A stretch of DNA of 64,000 bases, taken from the NCBI GenBank assembly GCA_963708025.1, contig CAVPSB010000003.1:1-64000 (forward strand). Reading direction: 5' to 3'. This DNA is from an uncultured Candidatus Rokubacteria bacterium (GTDB lineage: Bacteria; Methylomirabilota; Methylomirabilia; Rokubacteriales; DASRDR01). Position 1 is the first letter of the stretch. Every line of letters begins with the position of its first letter. The position numbers were made by a program, and so were the translations under genes. Shown here in pieces: positions 38,491 through 53,238 of this stretch. The notes under the pieces were generated by a model, which searched no databases, was not told the origin of the DNA, and was given only the letters and a program-made list of their open reading frames with translations.

Positions 38491-38573
38491 GAGGCGCTGA
38501 GGCTGTGAAGCGATCGCCGAGGACGTGTGAGCTACCGGAGCTCCGGAGGGGGGGACCGGGCCGCCGGAGGGAC

Positions 38574-38608
38574 GCGGCGTCCCGAGGGCCGCAGGCCCGA
38601 GGCGCCGC
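38574..38608. repeat. Repeat family B copy upstream of ileS
   Basis: gcggcgtcccga-gggcc-gca-ggccc-gaggcgccgc, inside a larger G7/C7 stem (38543-38642). Confidence 0.8.
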
Positions 38609-38655
38609 GGCGATAGAGATGGAGCGCGCAGCTCCCCCCCGGCCCGACTGAGAGC

Positions 38656-41922: not shown

Positions 41923-42074
41923 GGGGCCGAGCCGAGGACGACCATAGGTCGGACCGACGCCCCCAGGCCGAAGGCCGTCCGCCCCAGGCCGAAGGCCGTC
42001 CAATCGACGTCGGCCGAGCGCGTCCCGGCCGAGATGAACGTTGCGACGCTCATCGGCTCGGCTCGGCCCTGCCC
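41923..42074. repeat. Chimeric palindromic element (family C-like ends with two tandem GGCCGAAGGCC modules)
   Basis: 3' end tgcgacgctcatcgg...ccctgccc matches family C; tandem gccccaggccgaaggccgtcc x2 at 41959-42001. Confidence 0.7.
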
Positions 42075-42105: not shown

Positions 42106-42121
42106 AGCGCCAGTCGTCAAC

Positions 42122-42298
42122 GGGGTCCCGGGTGAGCCCCTCGCGGGGCCAAGAGGGAAGGCGGTGCGAGACCGCCGCGACCCCGTCACTGTGATCGGGG
42201 ACGAAAGCCGCGAAGCGGCCACTGGCGCCGGGTACCGGCGCTGGGAAGGCGGCGGCGAGTAGGACGATCCGAGAGCCAGGAAACCTGCCCGGGACCCG
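42122..42298 (+). ncRNA. Cobalamin riboswitch upstream of cobU
   Basis: P1 gggtcccggg/cccgggaccc; AAGAGGGAA-GGCGGTG, CCCCGTCACTGTG, GCCACTG, TGGGAAGG, GAGCCAGGAAACCTGCC. Confidence 0.95.
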
Positions 42299-42379
42299 AG
42301 TACTCCTGACCGGTCTTCGAGGGGAGGCCCGGGTGCCCGCAGCTCTCTCGCCGAGTCCTCACCTTCAGCCCACCGCCAG

Positions 42380-42922: not shown

Positions 42923-44083
42923 GTGAAGGCATGGGTCCTCCGGCTCCCCCGTCCCCCCGCCAAGGCCGAAGGCCGTCTGGGTGGGGGAGGGGGGTTGGGG
43001 GGGTGGGCGGGCGGTCCCGAACTGAGCGCGCTCCTGGGCCGGATCGTCGCGCCGGACCCGCGCCCGGCGCTGGCCGCCCAGTGCCGTCTGGACCGGCTCA
43101 CCAAGCCGGCCGGCAGCCTCGGGCGGCTGGAGGAGCTGGCCGTGCGGGCGGCGCTCATCACGGGCTCGGTCACGCCGCGGCTCACGGCCCCGGTGATCTT
43201 CACGCTGGCCGCCGACCACGGTGTCGTCGCCGAGGGCGTGAGCGCGTATCCCCAGGCGGTCACGGCTCAGATGCTCGAGAACTTCCTGGATGGCGGCGCT
43301 GGCGTGAACGTCCTCGCCCGCCAGGTCGGCGCCCGTGTCGTCGTCGCCGATCTCGGGGTGGCCCTGGATCTGGCGCCGCGTCCCCGGCTCGTCGTCCGCA
43401 AGCTTGGACGTGGCACCGCGAACCTGGCCCGTGGCCCGGCGATGGCGCGGGAGCACGCGGCGGCCGCGATCGAGATCGGCGCGAGCCTCGTCGAAGAGGC
43501 GGCGCCCGACTGCGTCGGCACCGGTGAGATGGGGATCGGCAACACCACGGCCGCCAGCGCGCTGACGGCGGCGCTGACCGGCGCCGACCCGGATGCGGTG
43601 ACCGGGCGCGGGACTGGCGTCGACGACGCCGGCCGGGCGCGGAAGGTCGTCGCGATCCGGACGGCCCTGGCGGTGAACCGCCCAGACCCTCGCGACCCGC
43701 TGGGGGTGCTGGCCGCGCTCGGCGGCTTCGAGATCGCCGGCCTGGTGGGGGTCATCCTGGCCGGGGCCGCCCGGCGCGTTCCGGTCGTCCTCGACGGCTT
43801 CATCGCGACCGCCGCCGCCCTTGTCGCCGTCCGGCTTCAGCCCGACGCACGCGAGTACCTGCTGGCCGCCCACCGGAGCGCCGAGCCCGGCCATCGGGTG
43901 CTCCTGGAAACGCTCGGCCTCGCCCCGTACCTGGACCTCGGCATGCGCCTGGGGGAGGGGACGGGGGCTGCCCTTGGCATCGGCCTCCTGCGGGCGGCCC
44001 TCGCCTGCTACGCCGAGATGGCCACGTTCAAGGAGGCCGGGGTGTCGGAGCGCCTGCCATCCCGGACGTCGGCTCAGGCATGA
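42923..44083 (+). CDS. cobT: Nicotinate-nucleotide-dimethylbenzimidazole phosphoribosyltransferase (N-terminus derived from repeat A)
   Basis: LTKPAGSLGRLE, ADHGV, GEMGIGNTT, GGFEI, LDLGMRLGEGTGA. Confidence 0.95.
   Translation: MKAWVLRLPRPPAKAEGRLGGGGGLGGWAGGPELSALLGRIVAPDPRPALAAQCRLDRLTKPAGSLGRLEELAVRAALITGSVTPRLTAPVIFTLAADHGVVAEGVSAYPQAVTAQMLENFLDGGAGVNVLARQVGARVVVADLGVALDLAPRPRLVVRKLGRGTANLARGPAMAREHAAAAIEIGASLVEEAAPDCVGTGEMGIGNTTAASALTAALTGADPDAVTGRGTGVDDAGRARKVVAIRTALAVNRPDPRDPLGVLAALGGFEIAGLVGVILAGAARRVPVVLDGFIATAAALVAVRLQPDAREYLLAAHRSAEPGHRVLLETLGLAPYLDLGMRLGEGTGAALGIGLLRAALACYAEMATFKEAGVSERLPSRTSAQA
42936..43020 (+). repeat. Repeat family A copy in frame with the cobT 5' end
   Basis: tcctccggctccccc...ggccgaaggcc...gggggaggggggttggggggg...ggtcccga. 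Confidence 0.85.
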
Positions 44084-44965
44084 TCCGGCGACTGCTTACG
44101 ACGTTCTTCTTCAGTCTCGTCCTCAGCACGGGCACGGTGGCCTGGCCGGGGGAGACCCGCGACATGATCGGGCGCCGGGTCACGGTCCCGGAGGGTCCGC
44201 GCCGCGTGGTGTCCCTGGCGCCGAGCCTCACCGAGATCGCGTTCGCCCTGGGAGCCGCGGAGCAGATCGCCGGGGTGACCGACTTCTGTGACTTCCCCCC
44301 GGAGGCCCGCCAGAAACCCCGGATCGGCGGCATCTACACTCCGAACTTCGAGGCGATTCTCACGCCTCAGGCCGGACCTGATCCTGGCCACGACGGAAGG
44401 CAACCGCGAGGAGCACATCCGGGAGCTGGGAAGCCTCGGCCTCCCGGTGTACGTGGTCCACCCGGTGGACTTCGCCTCGGTCCTCGACTCGATTGCCCGT
44501 GTCGGTCGGCTGCTGGGCCGCGACGCCGAGGCGCGACAGCTCGTGGGCCGGATGCAGCGCGAGGCGGACGGGATCGCCCGGGCGCTGGAAGGATCCCGCC
44601 GCCCGCGGGTCCTCTACGTCCTGTGGGGAAACCCGCTGATCGTGCCCGGCCGGGACACGCTCATCACGGACATGATCCGGCGGGCCGGCGGCGACAGCGT
44701 GACCGGCGGGGAGCCGCTCGCGTATCCCCGGTTCTCGGTCGAGGAGGCCCTGGCCCGCCAGCCCGAGCGGGTCGTGCTGGCCCAGCACGGCCTGGCCTCG
44801 GTGGACGACCGCATCCGCGAGTGGCGGCACCTGACGCTCCTCCCGGCCGTCCGCGAGGGCCGCGTTCACGGGATCGACGGCGACCTGATGCACCGGCCGG
44901 GGCCGCGGATCATCGACGGCCTGCGGCGCCTCGCGCGGCTGCTCCACCCCGACGTGTCCTGGTGA
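44080..44965 (+). CDS. btuF: Cobalamin ABC transporter substrate-binding protein BtuF (frameshift at about 44364)
   Basis: RVVSLAPSLTE, GVTDFCDFP, PNFEAIL / LRPDLIL, PAVREGRV, RPGPR. Confidence 0.88.
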
Positions 44966-45040
44966 TCACATGACGAAGCAGCGGTGCTTCCGGATAGCGG
45001 CGCGGCTGCTCCGAGTTGAGGGCGCGCGAAGGGACGGCAA

Positions 45041-45149
45041 TCCTCCGGCTCCCCCCTCCCCCCGCCAAAGGCCGAAGGCCGTCCATCAGGTGGGGGAGGG
45101 GGGCCAAAGGCCGAAGGCCGTCGAAGGATCGGGTAGGCGGGAGGTACCA
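45041..45149 (+). repeat. Repeat family A copy with two GGCCGAAGGCC modules; supplies the btuC SD
   Basis: tcctccggctccccc...; GGAGGT 6 nt before ATG 45152. Confidence 0.85.
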
Positions 45150-45151
45150 AC

Positions 45152-46168: not shown

Positions 46169-46956
46169 CGCCGCTCCTGAGCGCGGAGGCGGTGGCGTTC
46201 GGCTACGGCGGGGTCTTCCGGCTGGAGGGCGTCAGCTTCGAGCTGGGGGCGGGGGAGATCCTCGGCGTGATCGGGCCGAATGCCTCCGGGAAGACGACCT
46301 TGATCCGACTCCTGTCCAAGGTCCTGGCGCCCCAGGCCGGGGAGATCCGGCTCGCCGGCACGCCGGTCGCGCGCATCGGTCGGCGGCAGCTGGCGCGCCA
46401 GGTCGCGGTCGTCCCGCAGGAGCTGGCGGTGGCCTTCCCACTGACGGTCGAGGAGCTCACCCTCATGGGGCGCTACCCGCACGCCCAGGGGCGGTTCTTC
46501 GAGGCTCCCGCCGACCTCGCCCGTGCCCGCGAGGCGATGGCGCTGGCCGGCGTGCTGGAGCTCGCGGAGCAGCCGCTCGACACCCTCTCCGGGGGGGAGC
46601 GCCAGCGGGCGGCGCTGGCCCGGGCGCTGGCCCAGGAGCCGCGGCTCCTCCTGCTGGACGAGCCGACCAGCCACCTCGACCTCCGCCACCAGCGGGAGAT
46701 CGTCGGCCTGCTCCGCCGGCTGAACCGCGACCGGGGCACCGCGATCGTGCTGGTGAGCCACGACCTGAACCTGGCGGGGGAGGTGGCCGACCGGCTGATG
46801 CTCCTCTCGTGCGGGCGCGTCGCCCGCCTCGGCCCGCCGGCCGAGGTGCTGGAGGAGGCGGCCCTCGAGGCGGCCTACGGCTGCCCGGTGCGGGTGGAGA
46901 AGAACCCGGTGTCAGGGCGTCCCGTGGTCACCGTGCGCTGGCCGGACCAGGAGTGA
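46165..46956 (+). CDS. btuD: Cobalamin/iron-chelate ABC ATPase BtuD
   Basis: GPNASGKTT, LSGGERQR, LLLDEPT, SHDLN; ATGA overlap with btuC. Confidence 0.92.
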   Translation: MTPLLSAEAVAFGYGGVFRLEGVSFELGAGEILGVIGPNASGKTTLIRLLSKVLAPQAGEIRLAGTPVARIGRRQLARQVAVVPQELAVAFPLTVEELTLMGRYPHAQGRFFEAPADLARAREAMALAGVLELAEQPLDTLSGGERQRAALARALAQEPRLLLLDEPTSHLDLRHQREIVGLLRRLNRDRGTAIVLVSHDLNLAGEVADRLMLLSCGRVARLGPPAEVLEEAALEAAYGCPVRVEKNPVSGRPVVTVRWPDQE

Positions 46957-47003
46957 TGCTCGATCGAATGGCCCAGTTGACGAGAGCGCGTGAAGGAGCG
47001 GGC

Positions 47004-47070
47004 GGCTCCGGCCCCCCCCCTCAGCCAAAGGCCGAAGCCGTCGAAGGATCGGGTGGGCGGGAGGTCCCAA
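47004..47070 (+). repeat. Repeat family A short copy
   Basis: gccaaaggccgaag-ccgtcgaaggatcgggtgggcgggaggtcc, nearly identical to 45103-45149. Confidence 0.8.
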
Positions 47071-47113
47071 ACCAATCGAAGGGGGTGAGAGCCAGGCGGT
47101 GTGAGTGGATGAC

Positions 47114-47364
47114 GTCCCCGATGCCGGGAAGCCGGTGAGGCGTGGCCCTTCGAGCGGCGCGCCGAGTCCGGCACTGTCCCGCAACTGTGAGGCGGCGCCG
47201 AAGGCCGGAGGCCGGAGGCGCCGCGACCAGATGCAGAGGAGCGGCGTCCCGAAGGCCGAAGGCCGGAGGCGCCGCGACCAGATGAACCATGCCACTGGGG
47301 TCAAGGAGGCCCTGGGAAGGCGCGGCGTCGCGATGAGCCACGAGTCAGGAGACCGATCGGGGAT
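47114..47364 (+). ncRNA. Atypical cobalamin riboswitch upstream of btuB, with repeat insertions
   Basis: P1 tccccgat/atcgggga; GGGAA-GCCGGTG...AGTCCGGCACTGTCCCGCAACTGTGA; GCCACTG; TGGGAAGG; GAGTCAGGAGACC. Confidence 0.88.
47192..47284 (+). repeat. Two tandem family B modules inside the riboswitch
   Basis: gcggcg..ccgaaggcc-g(g/a)a-ggccggaggcgccgcgaccagatg x2. Confidence 0.85.
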
Positions 47365-47405
47365 CCGAGGCGAGCCGGCACTCTTTCGACGGAGAGGAGT
47401 GGGCG

Positions 47406-49302
47406 ATGGGCTGGCGAGGATGCGTGAGGACGCTGATCGGGCTGGGACTGATCGTGGGCGCGAGTGAGGTGGCCGCGCAGCAGGCGGACGTGCCGCCGTC
47501 GCCGGAGCGGGCGGAGCCGATCGTGAAGACCGCGACCCGCGTGGACGAGCCGCTGGAGCAGATCGGGGCGTCGGTGACGGTGATCGACGAGGAGACCTTC
47601 CGTGCCCAGGAGTACCGGACGGTGGAGGAGGCCCTGCGCACCGTGCCGGGCGTGGAGATCCAGCGCTCGGGGAGCCTCGGCAAGCTCTCGACGGTGCGGA
47701 TCCGCGGCGCCAACCCCACCCAGGTGCAGGTGCTCATCGACGGGGTGCGGGTCAAGAGCGTGACGAGCGGCGACTTCGACTTCGCCGACCTGACCCTCGA
47801 CGACGTCGAGCGGATCGAGGTGGTGCGGGGCCCGCAGTCCACGCTCTACGGCGCCGACGCCATCGGCGGCGTCATCAACATCATCACCAAGCGGGGCCGG
47901 GGCCCACTGTCGGCCTACCTCGACTTCGAGACCGGCAACTACGAGACGTTCCGGGAGCGGGGCGGTGTCTCGGGGGCGGCCGGGCCGTGGGACTACTCGC
48001 TCGGCGTATCACGTCTGCGACTTCGCCGGCCAGTTCGACAACGACGAGCAGAACCTGACGTCGGTGAACGGCCGGGTGGGCTACGCCTTGCCCAATCGCG
48101 GCGAGCTGGCGCTGATCGGGCGCTACTCCGACGGTCACCGCGGTATCCCGTTCGTCACGATCTTCCCGGACTTCTCGCCGCGCCGGGAGCAGGACGACCG
48201 CTTCCTGCTGGCGAGCCTGCAGTGGAGCCAGCCGTGGACGGCCTGGTACGACCACGTGCTGCGGCTGGCCTACGTCCGGAGCGATCTGACCTTCCGCGAT
48301 CCCGACAGCGCGTTCACGACGCGCTCCGACATCTCGACCGAGCGCAGCGATGTGGACTGGCTTCACCACTTCTACCTGGGCGCCATCAACACGCTGACCG
48401 CCGGCTTCGAGTACCGGAACGAGAAGGGCGTCAACAAGGGCACCTTCTCGGAGAGCACCGACACGGTTGGCCTGTTCGCCCAGGACGAGCTCCGCCTGTT
48501 CCAGAGCCTCTTCCTGACCGGTGGCGTCCGCTACGACCACAACAGCGCCTTCGGCGACGCGACGACCGGCCGCGCTGCCGTCTCGTACGTGATCCGCGCC
48601 ACCGACTCCCGGCTCAAGGCGAGCTGGGCGGAGGGCTTCCGGGCGCCCACGTTCAACGAGCTGTTCTTCCCGGCGTTCCCCGGGCCGTGTCCCGCGTTCG
48701 GCAACCCGAACCTGAAGCCCGAGCGCGAGCGAGAGCTACGATGCCGGGGTCGAGCAGTACCTCTGGCGGCGGCGAATCCGTCTGGCCGCCACCGGACTTC
48801 CGGAACGATTTCGACGACCTCATCCAGTCGACGATCATCGATCCGGTGAACTTCTGCTTCCAGGCCCGAACGTCGGCCGCGCGCGGAGCCAGGGCGTGGA
48901 GGTGGAGGCGAGCGTAACGCCGATCGACGACCCTGACCCTGACCGCTCGCCTACACTTACACCCACACGGAGAACCTCGAGACCGGGGAGCCGCTGCCCC
49001 GCTTCGCGCCGGACCGCTGGGCGTTCACCGGCACCTGGGAGCCGCTCCCCGGGCTCAGCGTGGGCGGCGAGATCCTCATCGTGTCGAGCCAGTTCCAGGG
49101 CACCGGCGTGCCCCGGAACCCCGGCTACACGGTGGTGAACGCGGCGCCGCCAGCTACCGGCTGCCATGGCGCTGGGGGTGGCTCTCCGACGTGAGCCTTC
49201 CACCTGAAGGTCACCAACCTCTTCAACGAGGACTACAGCGAGGTCCTCGGCTTCCCGGCCCTCGGAACCCACGTGGTGGCCGGCGTCCGGGCGGGATTCT
49301 GA
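47406..49302 (+). CDS. btuB: TonB-dependent cobalamin receptor BtuB (multiple frameshifts 48015-49150)
   Basis: Plug (VPGV, IRGAN, LIDG, RIEVVRGPQSTLYGADAIGGVINII), FRAPTFNEL, NPNLKPE, NLFNEDY, C-terminal Phe (VRAGF*); preceded by a B12 riboswitch. Confidence 0.88.
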
Positions 49303-50048
49303 TGGAGCCGGAGCCGGTCGAGCTCACGTTCCTGGGCTCGGGCGACGCCTTCGGCAGCGGGGGGCGGTTCCAGGCGTGCGTCCACGTGCGAGCCGGCCCG
49401 ACCCGGTTCCTGGTTCGACTGCGGGGCCTCGTCGCTGGTGGCGATGAAGCGGCTCGGCGTTCACCTCGGCGGTGGAGGTCGTCCTCCTCTCGCACCTCCA
49501 CGGCGATCACTTCGGCGGCCTGCCCTTCCTGGTGCTCGACGGGCAGTTCCGCCGCCGGGCCCGGCCCCTCCACGTCGCCGGACCTCCGGGCGTGGAGACT
49601 CGGGTCCGCGAGGCGATGGAGGTCCTGTTCCCGGGCTCCTCGCGGGTGACGCGGGCCTTCGCCGCTGGAGTTCCTCGAGCTGCCCGAGCGATGGGAGACG
49701 CGGGTCCAGTCTCTGGCGGTGACCGCCTACCCCGTGGTCCACGCCAGCGGGGCGCCAGCCTTCGCGCTCCGGGTCGCCGCCGGCGGCAAGGTGATCGGCT
49801 ACTCCGGCGACACCGAATGGACGGAATCGCTGGTGGAGGTGGCGCGGGGGGCCGACGTGTTCGTCTGCGAGGCGTACTTCTTCGAGAAGCGCGTGAAGTA
49901 CCACCTCGACTGGCGGACGGTGATGGAGCATCGCCATCGACTGGACTGCCGCCGCCTGATCCTGACGCACATGAGCGAGGACATGCTCCGGCGGCTCCCC
50001 CTCGACGGCGTCGAGTGCGCCGAGGATGGTCTGACGGTGACGCTGTGA
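49302..50048 (+). CDS. MBL-fold metallo-hydrolase, tRNase Z-like (3 apparent frameshifts)
   Basis: FLGSGDAFGSGGR, DCG, SHLHGDH, YSGDT, LILTH across frames; TGATG coupling to btuB. Confidence 0.85.
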
Positions 50049-51872: not shown

Positions 51873-51954
51873 GAGCGTGTCAGCTGGCGGAGCATCTGCG
51901 CGCCCACGTCGACCTGACCGCGCTCCTGCGCCTCGTCCCCGCCACCGGAAGGGC

Positions 51955-51989
51955 GCGACGTCCCGAGGGCCGGAGGCCCGAGGCGTCGC
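51955..51989. repeat. Repeat family B copy upstream of tonB
   Basis: gcgacgtcccga-gggcc-gga-ggccc-gaggcgtcgc; compensatory A-T pair relative to the 38574 copy. Confidence 0.8.
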
Positions 51990-51999
51990 GGCGAGACGG

Positions 52000-53238
52000 A
52001 TGACCGACGCCCGGGCCATCGTCGCCGCCCTCGTGCTCTCGCTCGGCCTCCACGGCGGCGTGGCCCTCGCCCTTCGCGGACTGGGCTTCCACCCCGGAAT
52101 CTCCGAGTCGCTGCCGCCGCTCTACGTCCACCTCGTGGAGCTGGTGGTCGCCACGCCAGCCGTGCCGGCGCCGCGCGTGCGCGAGCTGCCCCCGCCTCTT
52201 CCCGTTCGCCCGCGCCGACCGGAGCTGCCCTCGGTGGTGGCGTCGGTCCCCACGCCGGCGACCGCGCCCGCCCGTGAGACCGGGGGCCCGGCGGCCCCGC
52301 CGGCCGCCGCCGCGGAGGCGCCGCGCGCGGTCGCCGAGCCGGCTGCGCCCCCGGCGCCGGCCGCGCCCCCGGCACCGCCGGCGCCTCCCGTCCCGTTGTC
52401 GGTGCCGGTCGCGCCGGCTCCGGTCGCCGCGCCTCTGGTCCCACCGATGGCTCCGCCGCCGGCGGCGCCGCTCGCCGCGCCCCCGGCTCCACCCGCCGCG
52501 CCGGCCCTATCGGTCCCGCTCGTCGCCACGGCGCCGCCGCCAGCGTCGCCTCCGGGGCCGGCAGCCGTCCCGATCCTGCCGGCGCCGGCCGTCGCGCCGC
52601 CGGTGGCGGCGGGGTCTGATCCACGGCCGGAGACCGCGTCGGCGGGCCGGTCGCCCTCCGCGCGCGCTTCCGCGTTCGCGTCGCCGTCTCCGGGAGTGGG
52701 GGTGGAACCTGGCCGCGAGGTCTCAGTTGGGGCGGTGTTACCCGGCGGCGCGCCGGGGATGGCGTCGGTCGCTCCGTCGGTGCGCCCCGGCGGAGCGGGT
52801 GGGGCGGTGGCGAGCCACGGCCGAGGCACCGCGCCGGCTCCCGGCGGCGCGCCGGAGGCCGGGGGGAGCAGCGGGGGGGCAGATAGGGTGGTCGACGCCG
52901 CGGGGCCGGTGGCGGCGTTGACGGGGGGGCGCTCCGGCGCGATTCCGCCGGAGTACGACGCCTACGTTCGCGCTCTGCGCCGGCGGATCGAGGAGCGGCT
53001 CGCGTACCCGGCGCTCGCGGTGCGGCGTGGTGTGCAGGGAACCGTCGAGCTCGAGCTGCAGCTCGACCCCGCCGGGCGGCTGACGGCGGTCCTCGAGGTC
53101 GGGCGCGATGGCGGCCTCTTGCGCGAGGCGGCGATCCGGGCGGTCCAGGACGCCACCCCGTTTCCGTTTCCGCCGGGACTGGCGGCGCGCGCGCTCACGA
53201 TCCGGCTCCCGATCGTATTCGAGCTTCGCCAGCGCTGA
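52000..53238 (+). CDS. tonB: TonB-family energy transducer with a long Pro/Ala linker
   Basis: TM with SxxxH (SLGLH), Pro-rich linker, YPALAVRRGVQGTV...A..AV...PFP. Confidence 0.85.
   Translation: MTDARAIVAALVLSLGLHGGVALALRGLGFHPGISESLPPLYVHLVELVVATPAVPAPRVRELPPPLPVRPRRPELPSVVASVPTPATAPARETGGPAAPPAAAAEAPRAVAEPAAPPAPAAPPAPPAPPVPLSVPVAPAPVAAPLVPPMAPPPAAPLAAPPAPPAAPALSVPLVATAPPPASPPGPAAVPILPAPAVAPPVAAGSDPRPETASAGRSPSARASAFASPSPGVGVEPGREVSVGAVLPGGAPGMASVAPSVRPGGAGGAVASHGRGTAPAPGGAPEAGGSSGGADRVVDAAGPVAALTGGRSGAIPPEYDAYVRALRRRIEERLAYPALAVRRGVQGTVELELQLDPAGRLTAVLEVGRDGGLLREAAIRAVQDATPFPFPPGLAARALTIRLPIVFELRQR

Follow-up and report, generated by a model that had tools for sequence, protein, structure and literature searches.

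Can a cobalamin riboswitch carry dispersed repeat DNA within its aptamer and still work? The question is raised by positions 47114-47364 of a 64,000-nucleotide (nt) stretch of DNA from an uncultured Candidatus Rokubacteria bacterium of soil (GenBank assembly GCA_963708025.1, contig CAVPSB010000003.1, positions 1-64,000), here termed the window. The element is located between btuD, which ends at 46956, and the gene it controls, which starts at 47406 and codes for a TonB-dependent receptor made up of a Plug and a beta-barrel domain; this gene lies inside a cob/btu cluster, confirming a B12-related target. A sequence-only reading of the window had described the riboswitch as invaded by repeat modules, pointing to an absent P2 arm, an extra stem-loop of about 25 nt in the L4 T-loop, and two tandem hairpins of a dispersed family, family B, at 47192-47284. 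All three features were found, but only the last of them is repeat-derived: the tandem units (47192-47233 and 47234-47284) are specific to one lineage, whereas the loss of P2 and the L4 helix belong to the family at large. The insertion is probably a tolerated, mildly destabilising passenger, rather than an adaptation or a new kind of switch.

The element was placed by comparison with its relatives. The receptor protein was searched in 40 related genomes, and 20 of the loci returned were scanned with Rfam. In 19 of them the cobalamin riboswitch model RF00174 scored above threshold just 5' of the receptor gene, with 51.9-91.8 bits; in the twentieth (L024) the upstream side is lost at a contig end. 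When metagenomes were scanned for a 28-base core stretch, nine loci came up, seven of them orthologous leaders, from which L037 and L038 were left out as near-duplicates of L036 and L034. The resulting set of 24 orthologues (19 + 5) is made up of kin and not of independent samples, some being near-identical (L018 and L042). The genomes matched by the 28-base core pattern are labelled as Candidatus Rokubacteria/Methylomirabilota metagenome-assembled genomes (MAGs), and one as Actinomycetota. The other two loci of the scan, L039 and L040 on JGI metagenome contigs, share the 28-base L4-P5-P6 core, have a very short P6 hairpin and lie in surroundings richer in A+T; both belong to unrelated organisms and represent another type of cobalamin riboswitch, which is class-II-like. 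Apart from the insert, the window differs little from its relatives, being near-identical to them. Its core motifs (P1, GGGAA, L4 GGUG..CC, L5 CCCGC and the B12 box AGUCAGGAGACC) all align to the Rfam model and are identical or near-identical to those of the 24 orthologues. By this homology, 47114-47364 is orthologous to the cobalamin riboswitch found ahead of the btuB-type receptor gene across this Rokubacteria/Methylomirabilota family.

Two of the three oddities recur across the orthologues. Only GC (J1/3, 47123-47124; read from the sequence and the Rfam alignment) separates the 5' strand of P1 from CGGGAA, so that the reported absence of P2 holds. The P1 strand (GUCCCCGAU, 47114-47122, on the forward strand like every part of the riboswitch and its receptor gene) was read from the sequence and pairs with 47356-47364 at probabilities of 0.9-1.0; CGGGAA (47125-47130) is aligned by Rfam as the P3 5' strand and J3/4, at model positions 45-50. 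With 2 nt between P1 and P3, the L2A-P2-L2B arm that marks class I riboswitches is lacking. P2 is likewise absent in 24/24 orthologous btuB leaders, in which J1/3 measures 2-3 nt. The extra L4 stem-loop was also placed where it had been described: the Rfam alignment shows P4 (GCCGG/CCGGC) and the L4 T-loop UGA...GAGU (47131-47172) interrupted by a 25-nt hairpin at 47139-47163, between GGUGA and GAGUCCGG, which folds alone at -11.8 kcal/mol. A hairpin occupies this position in 22 of the 24 orthologues, there being none in L020 and L022, and its stems vary yet stay complementary (GGCGUCC/GGACGCU, GACGUCG/CGACGUC, GGCGCGC/GCGCGCC). No second copy of the window's L4 insert was found in the genome. 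The known riboswitch fold did not emerge from an RNAalifold consensus of the 24 relatives, and the helices were taken from the Rfam alignment and from complementarity. Since both features are common among the orthologues, they are therefore to be seen as ordinary traits of the subclass and not as invasions. The loss of P2 is a lineage trait, and the L4 stem-loop is not a repeat but an ordinary helix with covarying counterparts, conserved in homologues and unrelated to family B. For this insert, the sequence-only reading is refuted on its own terms.

The tandem units are of another kind. They span the interval from ACUGUGAG, which ends at 47191, to GCCACUG, which starts at 47291, and their description as two family-B hairpins is borne out by a repeat search and by copies of the family across the genome. 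Unit 1 (47192-47233; from sequence comparison) consists of the arms GCGGCGCC and GGCGCCGC with loop GAAGGCCGGAGGCCGGA, followed by GACCAGAUG, and lacks the 5' CAGAAGGGA part. Unit 2 (47234-47284; nhmmer E=1.9e-4) is a complete element, with CAGAGGAGCGGCGUCCC, the loop and GGCGCCGCGACCAGAUG. The repeat search matched 47198-47233 to 47249-47284 at 97% identity over 36 nt, with a start-to-start spacing of 51, and grouped the pair with 38582-38617 and 51963-51998; these copies in the window extend over 38560-38621 and 51941-52002. The pair 47198-47284 was not listed by Tandem Repeats Finder. In a global alignment of 47183-47233 with 47234-47284, the differences between the units fall mainly at their 5' ends.

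The assembly comprises 8.17 Mb in 49 contigs at 71% G+C (completeness 99.67%, estimated contamination 8.18%), the riboswitch being on the contig numbered C3. A blastn-short search of it gave 161 hits for three query units, and nhmmer found 102 family-B copies genome-wide, unit 2 included, with a first-round split of 50/43 by strand. A 23-nt core pattern allowing at most one mismatch had 23 hits in this genome and none for a reversed control. The core pattern was found in 0/40 related genomes (including the unpublished genome G038), and the units in 0/24 orthologous leaders. At the core of family B is a hairpin whose loop, TCCCGAGGGCCGYAGGCCCGAGG, is conserved and whose 7-nt arms change in a mutually compensating way from one subfamily to the next (CGCGGCG/CGCCGCG, CGCGACG/CGTCGCG, CGGGACG/CGTCCCG). 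Many copies are built as modules into larger composites, which end in G-runs and C-runs and are of at least three different kinds; examples of family-B copies are C14:537611 and 537758, and C32:302265 and 303082. One composite, present six times (contigs C31, C19, C22, C14, C10 and C32), matches unit 2 at 86-89% over 46-47 nt and has the same ends as unit 2, AGGGAGCG... and ...GCGACCAGATG.

The place at which the units are found differs in length among the relatives themselves. The segment from ACUGURAG to GYCACUGG measures 20-22 nt in 9/22 relatives and 38-44 nt, with an extra native hairpin, in the other 13/22; in the window it measures 99 nt and opens directly with the unit 1 arm. The optional hairpin of the relatives was itself considered as a dispersed repeat and rejected, giving 0-3 pattern hits per genome in four related genomes against 0-4 for a reversed control. 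The insertion sits at a naturally variable junction of the outer arm. Both comparisons that had been proposed along with the sequence-only reading were run: mapping on the Rfam Cobalamin model placed the 25-nt L4 insert and the 99-nt split, and the btuB leaders of relatives showed two of the oddities to be typical of the lineage and the tandem units to be absent from all 24.

On the 5' side of the units lie P5/L5 (ACUGUCCCGCAA, 47173-47184; Rfam alignment), the kissing-loop partner, which is identical in most relatives, and the P6 5' strand CUG with UGAG (47185-47191; alignment with relatives), its CUG being complementary to CAG at 47346-47348. On the 3' side, the linker AACCAU (47285-47290), two of whose six positions differ in near-identical environmental contigs, leads into the distal P6-extension hairpin GCC-A-CUGGGG...CCCUGG-GAA-GGC (47291-47321; Rfam model 108-139), which is kept in relatives and includes a conserved GAA at 47316-47318. 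There follow the 3' strand of the P6 extension, GCGGC GUCGC GAUGAG CCA CGAGU (47322-47345; comparison with relatives), the B12-box core CAGGAGACCG with the P6 3' strand, J6/3 and the P3 3' strand (47346-47355; invariant in 31 relatives' leaders), and the P1 3' strand AUCGGGGAU (47356-47364; from the sequence and pair probabilities). The distal hairpin, the GAA and the entire 3' strand of the extension are intact; it is the proximal 5' strand, UGGGGAGCG, the native partner of the 3' strand, that the repeats have displaced.

Beyond the aptamer, 31 relatives' leaders continue with a hairpin, CACYCYUU-CGCGG-AARAGGAGUG, in which the Shine-Dalgarno sequence immediately ahead of the AUG is sequestered. 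The loop, which reads CGCGG or, in four leaders, CGUGG, is complementary to L5 CCGC, pairing being kept when C changes to U. The window, aligned with these leaders, has the counterpart at 47379-47408: a hairpin CACUCU...AGGAGUG sequestering the Shine-Dalgarno sequence GGAGAGGAG (47392-47399), with loop UUCGACGGAGA and the AUG at 47406. From the relatives, we infer that the riboswitch acts on translation; the layout would be that of a translational, kissing-loop B12 switch of the type portrayed in PMC7367189 and PMC11260477. Corrinoid binding would stabilise a kissing complex between L5 and the complementary loop, L13, of the hairpin, and keep the start site closed. The two 51-nt family-B units occupy the P6-extension junction where many relatives carry their optional native hairpin, and can form a stem domain of their own that stands out from this junction. 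A native-like extension helix could still form by pairing of the unit 2 3' flank CGCGAC with the conserved GUCGCG, at a predicted cost of only 3.3 kcal/mol above the core-constrained optimum. In the class I (adenosylcobalamin) riboswitches, PMC7367189 assigns the P2 arm no major role in ligand recognition and describes adenosines of the long P6 extension as buttressing the adenosyl pocket; the intact GAA of GGGAAGGC may represent those adenosines.

The same junction is found in other samples. Among public sequencing runs, none contained at least half of the sampled words (best share 0.38), and no RNA run was among those listed as containing them. Logan contigs from four metagenome runs were compared with 47000-49400, and in three of these, X2 (1 contig), X3 (3-4) and X7 (2), contigs have their first base some 31 nt into unit 2 and read on into the GCCACUG hairpin. 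Two linker positions, 47285 and 47288, differ from the window in these junction contigs, as does 47307, in a loop, in those of X2 and X3. Over 47285-47405, the differences listed include no substitution at a conserved position and one minority inserted base at 47325. Over 47332-47676 an X2 contig differs by 12 substitutions without a gap, over 47291-47677 an X7 contig has 15 substitutions and one gap, and the coding part of the junction-carrying environmental variants is about 4-5% different. Because near-identical environmental contigs carry the junction between repeat and aptamer with the aptamer 3' half unchanged, it can be argued that the insert is tolerated, as the sequence-only reading had supposed; the support is indirect. 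We infer retained ligand binding and tolerance, and a working switch that puts up with a repeat passenger is the reading we moderately favour.

A number of findings weigh against a working switch. The gathering score of RF00174, 31.5 bits, which is an operational cut-off and not a structural feature, is not reached at 47114-47364 in a scan of the whole window. A permissive scan of 46950-47450 gives two collinear local pieces that cover model positions 45-169, both below 31.5 bits: one at 47125-47214 (24.9 bits, E 2e-4, from model position 45) and one at 47264-47348 (26.1 bits, E 9.4e-5, model 81-162), the latter also recovered in a genome-wide search. The aptamer is split into two pieces because the 99-nt segment intervenes, and it falls below the threshold because of the insert only. 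The displaced UGGGGAGCG is invariant in the 24 relatives, opening the segment after ACUGURAG in 22/22 of those compared by segment, with L020 and L022 alike in alignment. The claim that all core motifs are present stands for those aligned to the Rfam model, but not for this one, which is not at its place. In relatives, the conserved 3' strand offers CCA as the partner of its UGG and ...CGC as the partner of its GCG...; in the window, the native 3-bp UGG:CCA helix cannot form.

Predicted folding and the downstream region add to these points. Forcing the 25 core pairs in the window costs 12.0 kcal/mol (free minimum -137.5 kcal/mol, core-only constraint -125.5 kcal/mol), compared with a median of 4.1 and a range of 0.8-7.1 kcal/mol in 23 of the 24 relatives, L006 being left out as its pattern was unmatched. 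The unconstrained minimum-energy fold retains 11/25 core pairs, although such folding is a weak guide, as relatives too retain only 9-22/25. The L4 hairpin is the predicted partner of the orphaned 3' strand in the free minimum; thermodynamic predictions carry limited weight for an RNA with tertiary structure. The platform loop, CGACGG in the window, has an extra A that is present in 0/31 relatives and leaves three contiguous complementary bases; the extra A is probably real, since an X2 contig over the loop shows no gap. Among the contigs listed, no long near-identical one crosses 47114-47253, the stretch with unit 1 and the left junction, which says nothing either way. Finally, btuB and btuF are both frameshifted in the assembly.

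Much of this would be expected of a dead or decaying switch, in which the insertion removed the P6-extension 5' strand that docks on the L4 T-loop, the aptamer no longer folds or binds, and the btuB, btuF locus is being lost. The displacement of UGGGGAGCG, a core-forcing cost beyond the range of the relatives, the Rfam score below threshold and the altered L13 loop all speak for it, as do the broken reading frames, interrupted at least five times in btuB and once in btuF. The receptor gene (47406-49302) has its Plug in the first frame and its beta-barrel in another, and tblastn with relatives' proteins and indels relative to near-identical contigs also show it to be broken; compared with relatives' receptors, which are single-frame proteins of 613-771 amino acids, the frame switches near 48016, 48727 and 48797, and again within 48800-49200. 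In btuF (44080-44973), split near 44362, positions 1-55 and 56-233 of the Peripla_BP_2 profile are matched in different frames. The breaks inspected, however, are single extra bases in non-homopolymer context, and the btuB breaks are absent from contigs 96-99% identical to the window. Alignment to near-identical contigs gave 1 gap and 2 substitutions over 47932-48086, and 3 gaps and 1-2 substitutions over 49033-49342; to one X7 contig, 13 gaps and 21 substitutions over 48728-49400. In 1.9 Mb of this genome, a strict frame-switch detector recorded 53 events, or 11.2 per 400 kb, compared with 2 in 400 kb of a related genome of the same G+C (G010), a 5.6x rate. The frame breaks in btuB and btuF are most likely assembly insertion errors rather than gene decay, and other findings of broken genes in this genome call for caution. 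In the junction-carrying environmental variants, moreover, the aptamer 3' half and the platform have no listed change at conserved positions, and the btuB-type gene at 47406-49302 is the sole match to the receptor query in the 8.2-Mb genome. We regard a dead switch as rather unlikely.

A further reading, about as doubtful as a dead switch, is that the dispersed repeat, selfish in origin, now serves the riboswitch as structural RNA by co-option, so that part of the scaffold of the ligand pocket in a working switch would be repeat-derived. Three substitute partners for the orphaned 3' strand were compared with the core forced. The unit 2 3' flank, with CGCGAC (47273-47278) paired to GUCGCG (47327-47332), gives -122.2 kcal/mol, only 3.3 kcal/mol above the core-constrained optimum; the unit 1 5' arm gives -115.5 kcal/mol and the unit 2 5' arm -108.2 kcal/mol. 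In the CGCGAC:GUCGCG fold, a shifted 3-bp GGC:GCC takes the place of UGG:CCA, and the units pair together as one long stem domain. Another X7 contig (depth 5.6) lacks the insert, 47191 being joined to 47308 by way of 40 other letters. These begin with the relatives' UGGGGAGCG, and GCGGCG runs straight into ACCAGAUGAA without the hairpin; both flanks match ends of a family-B composite. The contig is more likely to represent a copy with its palindromic centre deleted, although it may be a pre-insertion state with chance similarity. Under co-option, the environmental variant with GGAGCGGCG joined directly to ACCAGAUGAA would be a collapsed form of the same event.

A gain of function is less probable still, and we think it improbable. 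The units might retune corrinoid selectivity through the peripheral domain, as the sequence-only reading had suggested for AdoCbl versus Me/OH-Cbl, or add a translatable upstream open reading frame (uORF) within the aptamer. Each unit offers GGAGG, 12 nt and then AUG; the AUGs at 47231 and 47282 are in frame, within an open frame at 47105-47467. A spacing of 12 nt between GGAGG and AUG is long, which counts against a uORF, and the Shine-Dalgarno-like GGAGG lies partly within the hairpin 3' arm. Twelve of the 102 family-B copies end at the start of an open reading frame (ORF) with coding-type G+C at third codon positions (GC3), the copy near tonB among them, but the other 90 have no start after them. 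Small changes in peripheral elements can alter selectivity, according to the discussion in PMC7367189, and PMC11260477 describes a uORF that is translated from within the P9-P10 extension of the Mycobacterium tuberculosis metE B12 riboswitch. No relative of the window, however, needs such a module.

That the tandem duplication or the whole insert was mis-assembled in an error-prone MAG is very improbable: many single-base insertions near the locus, the raised genome-wide frameshift signal, the contamination estimate, and a unit 1 and left junction bridged by none of the independent contigs listed would fit, but in the independent runs X2, X3 and X7 contigs connect the aptamer with the 3' part of unit 2, the boundary between units 1 and 2 is spanned by an X2 contig with one extra C at single-copy-like depth (10.9, compared with 9.2-13.4 in adjacent single-copy contigs), and the units differ from each other at several positions, unlike a collapsed or duplicated read error.

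The element can be set beside known systems. With the class I riboswitches of RF00174 (T. tengcongensis 4GMA and S. thermophilum 4GXY, as treated in PMC7367189) it has in common the P3-P6 junction motifs GGGAA, GGUG...CC, CCCGC and AGUCAGGAGACC, a long P6 extension with GCCACUG...GGGAAGGC, the P1 closure and a B12 uptake gene downstream. It departs from the class I definition given there in having no P2 arm and a J1/3 of 2 nt, as in class II, and from class I generally in the hairpin within the L4 T-loop, the two dispersed-repeat units in the P6 extension and the displaced 5' strand. The orthologous btuB leaders of related Rokubacteria/Methylomirabilota MAGs (L005-L023, L034-L042 and L063-L069) resemble it in gene context, P2-less layout, position of the L4 hairpin and near-identical core and platform; unlike the window, they have no family-B units, all retain UGGGGAGCG after ACUGURAG, and their extra hairpin is native and single-copy. 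The M. tuberculosis metE riboswitch, as presented in PMC11260477, likewise has an enlarged, multi-branched P6 extension 5' of the B12 box which holds a start codon and uORF. Its branches are native and its uORF has been shown to be translated, whereas the branches in the window are repeats whose translation is merely conceivable.

As a repeat, family B resembles REP/REPIN elements, MITEs and the mycobacterial MIRUs, as characterised in PMC3184786, in being a short GC-rich hairpin with about 100 copies, compensatory-arm subfamilies and occasional tandems, some copies ending at a start codon. Two identities were considered and rejected. A REP/RAYT system was set aside, the RAYT-type Y1 transposase (PF01797) not having been found in this genome. 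A MIRU-like repeat at stop/start junctions was dropped as an account of the family in general, as 12/102 copies stand before a start and 0/102 directly after a stop codon, the riboswitch copies lie in a leader and not between cistrons, and most copies are modules of larger composites. In the literature searched, no description of dispersed repeats inside riboswitch aptamers was found. The family-B copy at 51945-52001, between cbiB and tonB, ends in an ATG opening a long frame with a GC3 of 0.91; this is probably the true tonB start, and the repeat appears to supply the tonB start region.

The surrounding cluster is one of corrinoid salvage and uptake, with a first riboswitch followed by cobU, cobT, btuF, btuC and btuD, and then the riboswitch described here, the receptor gene, cbiZ, cbiB and tonB. 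The first riboswitch (42113-42306), which had been offered as a canonical internal control, is indeed so: in the Rfam scan of the window it is full-length, has P2 and scores 94.8 bits. A perfect tandem of 21 nt x 2 (CCCCAGGCCGAAGGCCGTCCG) lies at 41961-42001, about 110 nt 5' of it, and its GGCCGAAGGCC motif reappears in the loops of family-B units and in other repeats. The gap between btuD and the second riboswitch holds another dispersed repeat at 47024-47068, a C-run followed by CAAAGGCCGAAGCC..., with more than 200 blastn-short hits genome-wide; a copy at 45103-45150 ends exactly at the btuC start, and depth in the metagenome runs is very high over 47000-47080. A promoter and terminator scan of 46800-47500 found none, although the promoter consensus may not fit this phylum. 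The genome has a third cobalamin riboswitch on another contig (C34:123319-123513; locus L001), canonical and scoring 106 bits. On the reverse strand of that locus, a 325-amino-acid ORF running off the locus matches FAD-dependent oxidoreductase families, an unusual target for a B12 switch; an unassigned 169-amino-acid ORF lies between it and the riboswitch. The locus was considered as the site of a backup receptor, but nothing btuB-like was seen there and no argument from a backup receptor can be made.

The locus illustrates that real riboswitches can be missed by covariance-model scans. It also shows the natural variability of class-I-like peripheral parts: a bacterial family does without the P2 arm and has a helix in the L4 T-loop, and one of its lineages also carries some 90 nt of repeat DNA at the P6-extension junction. 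Should corrinoids still be bound by the RNA, it would provide a natural map of insertion tolerance for riboswitch engineering; should they not, it would exemplify how a repeat can inactivate a regulatory RNA.

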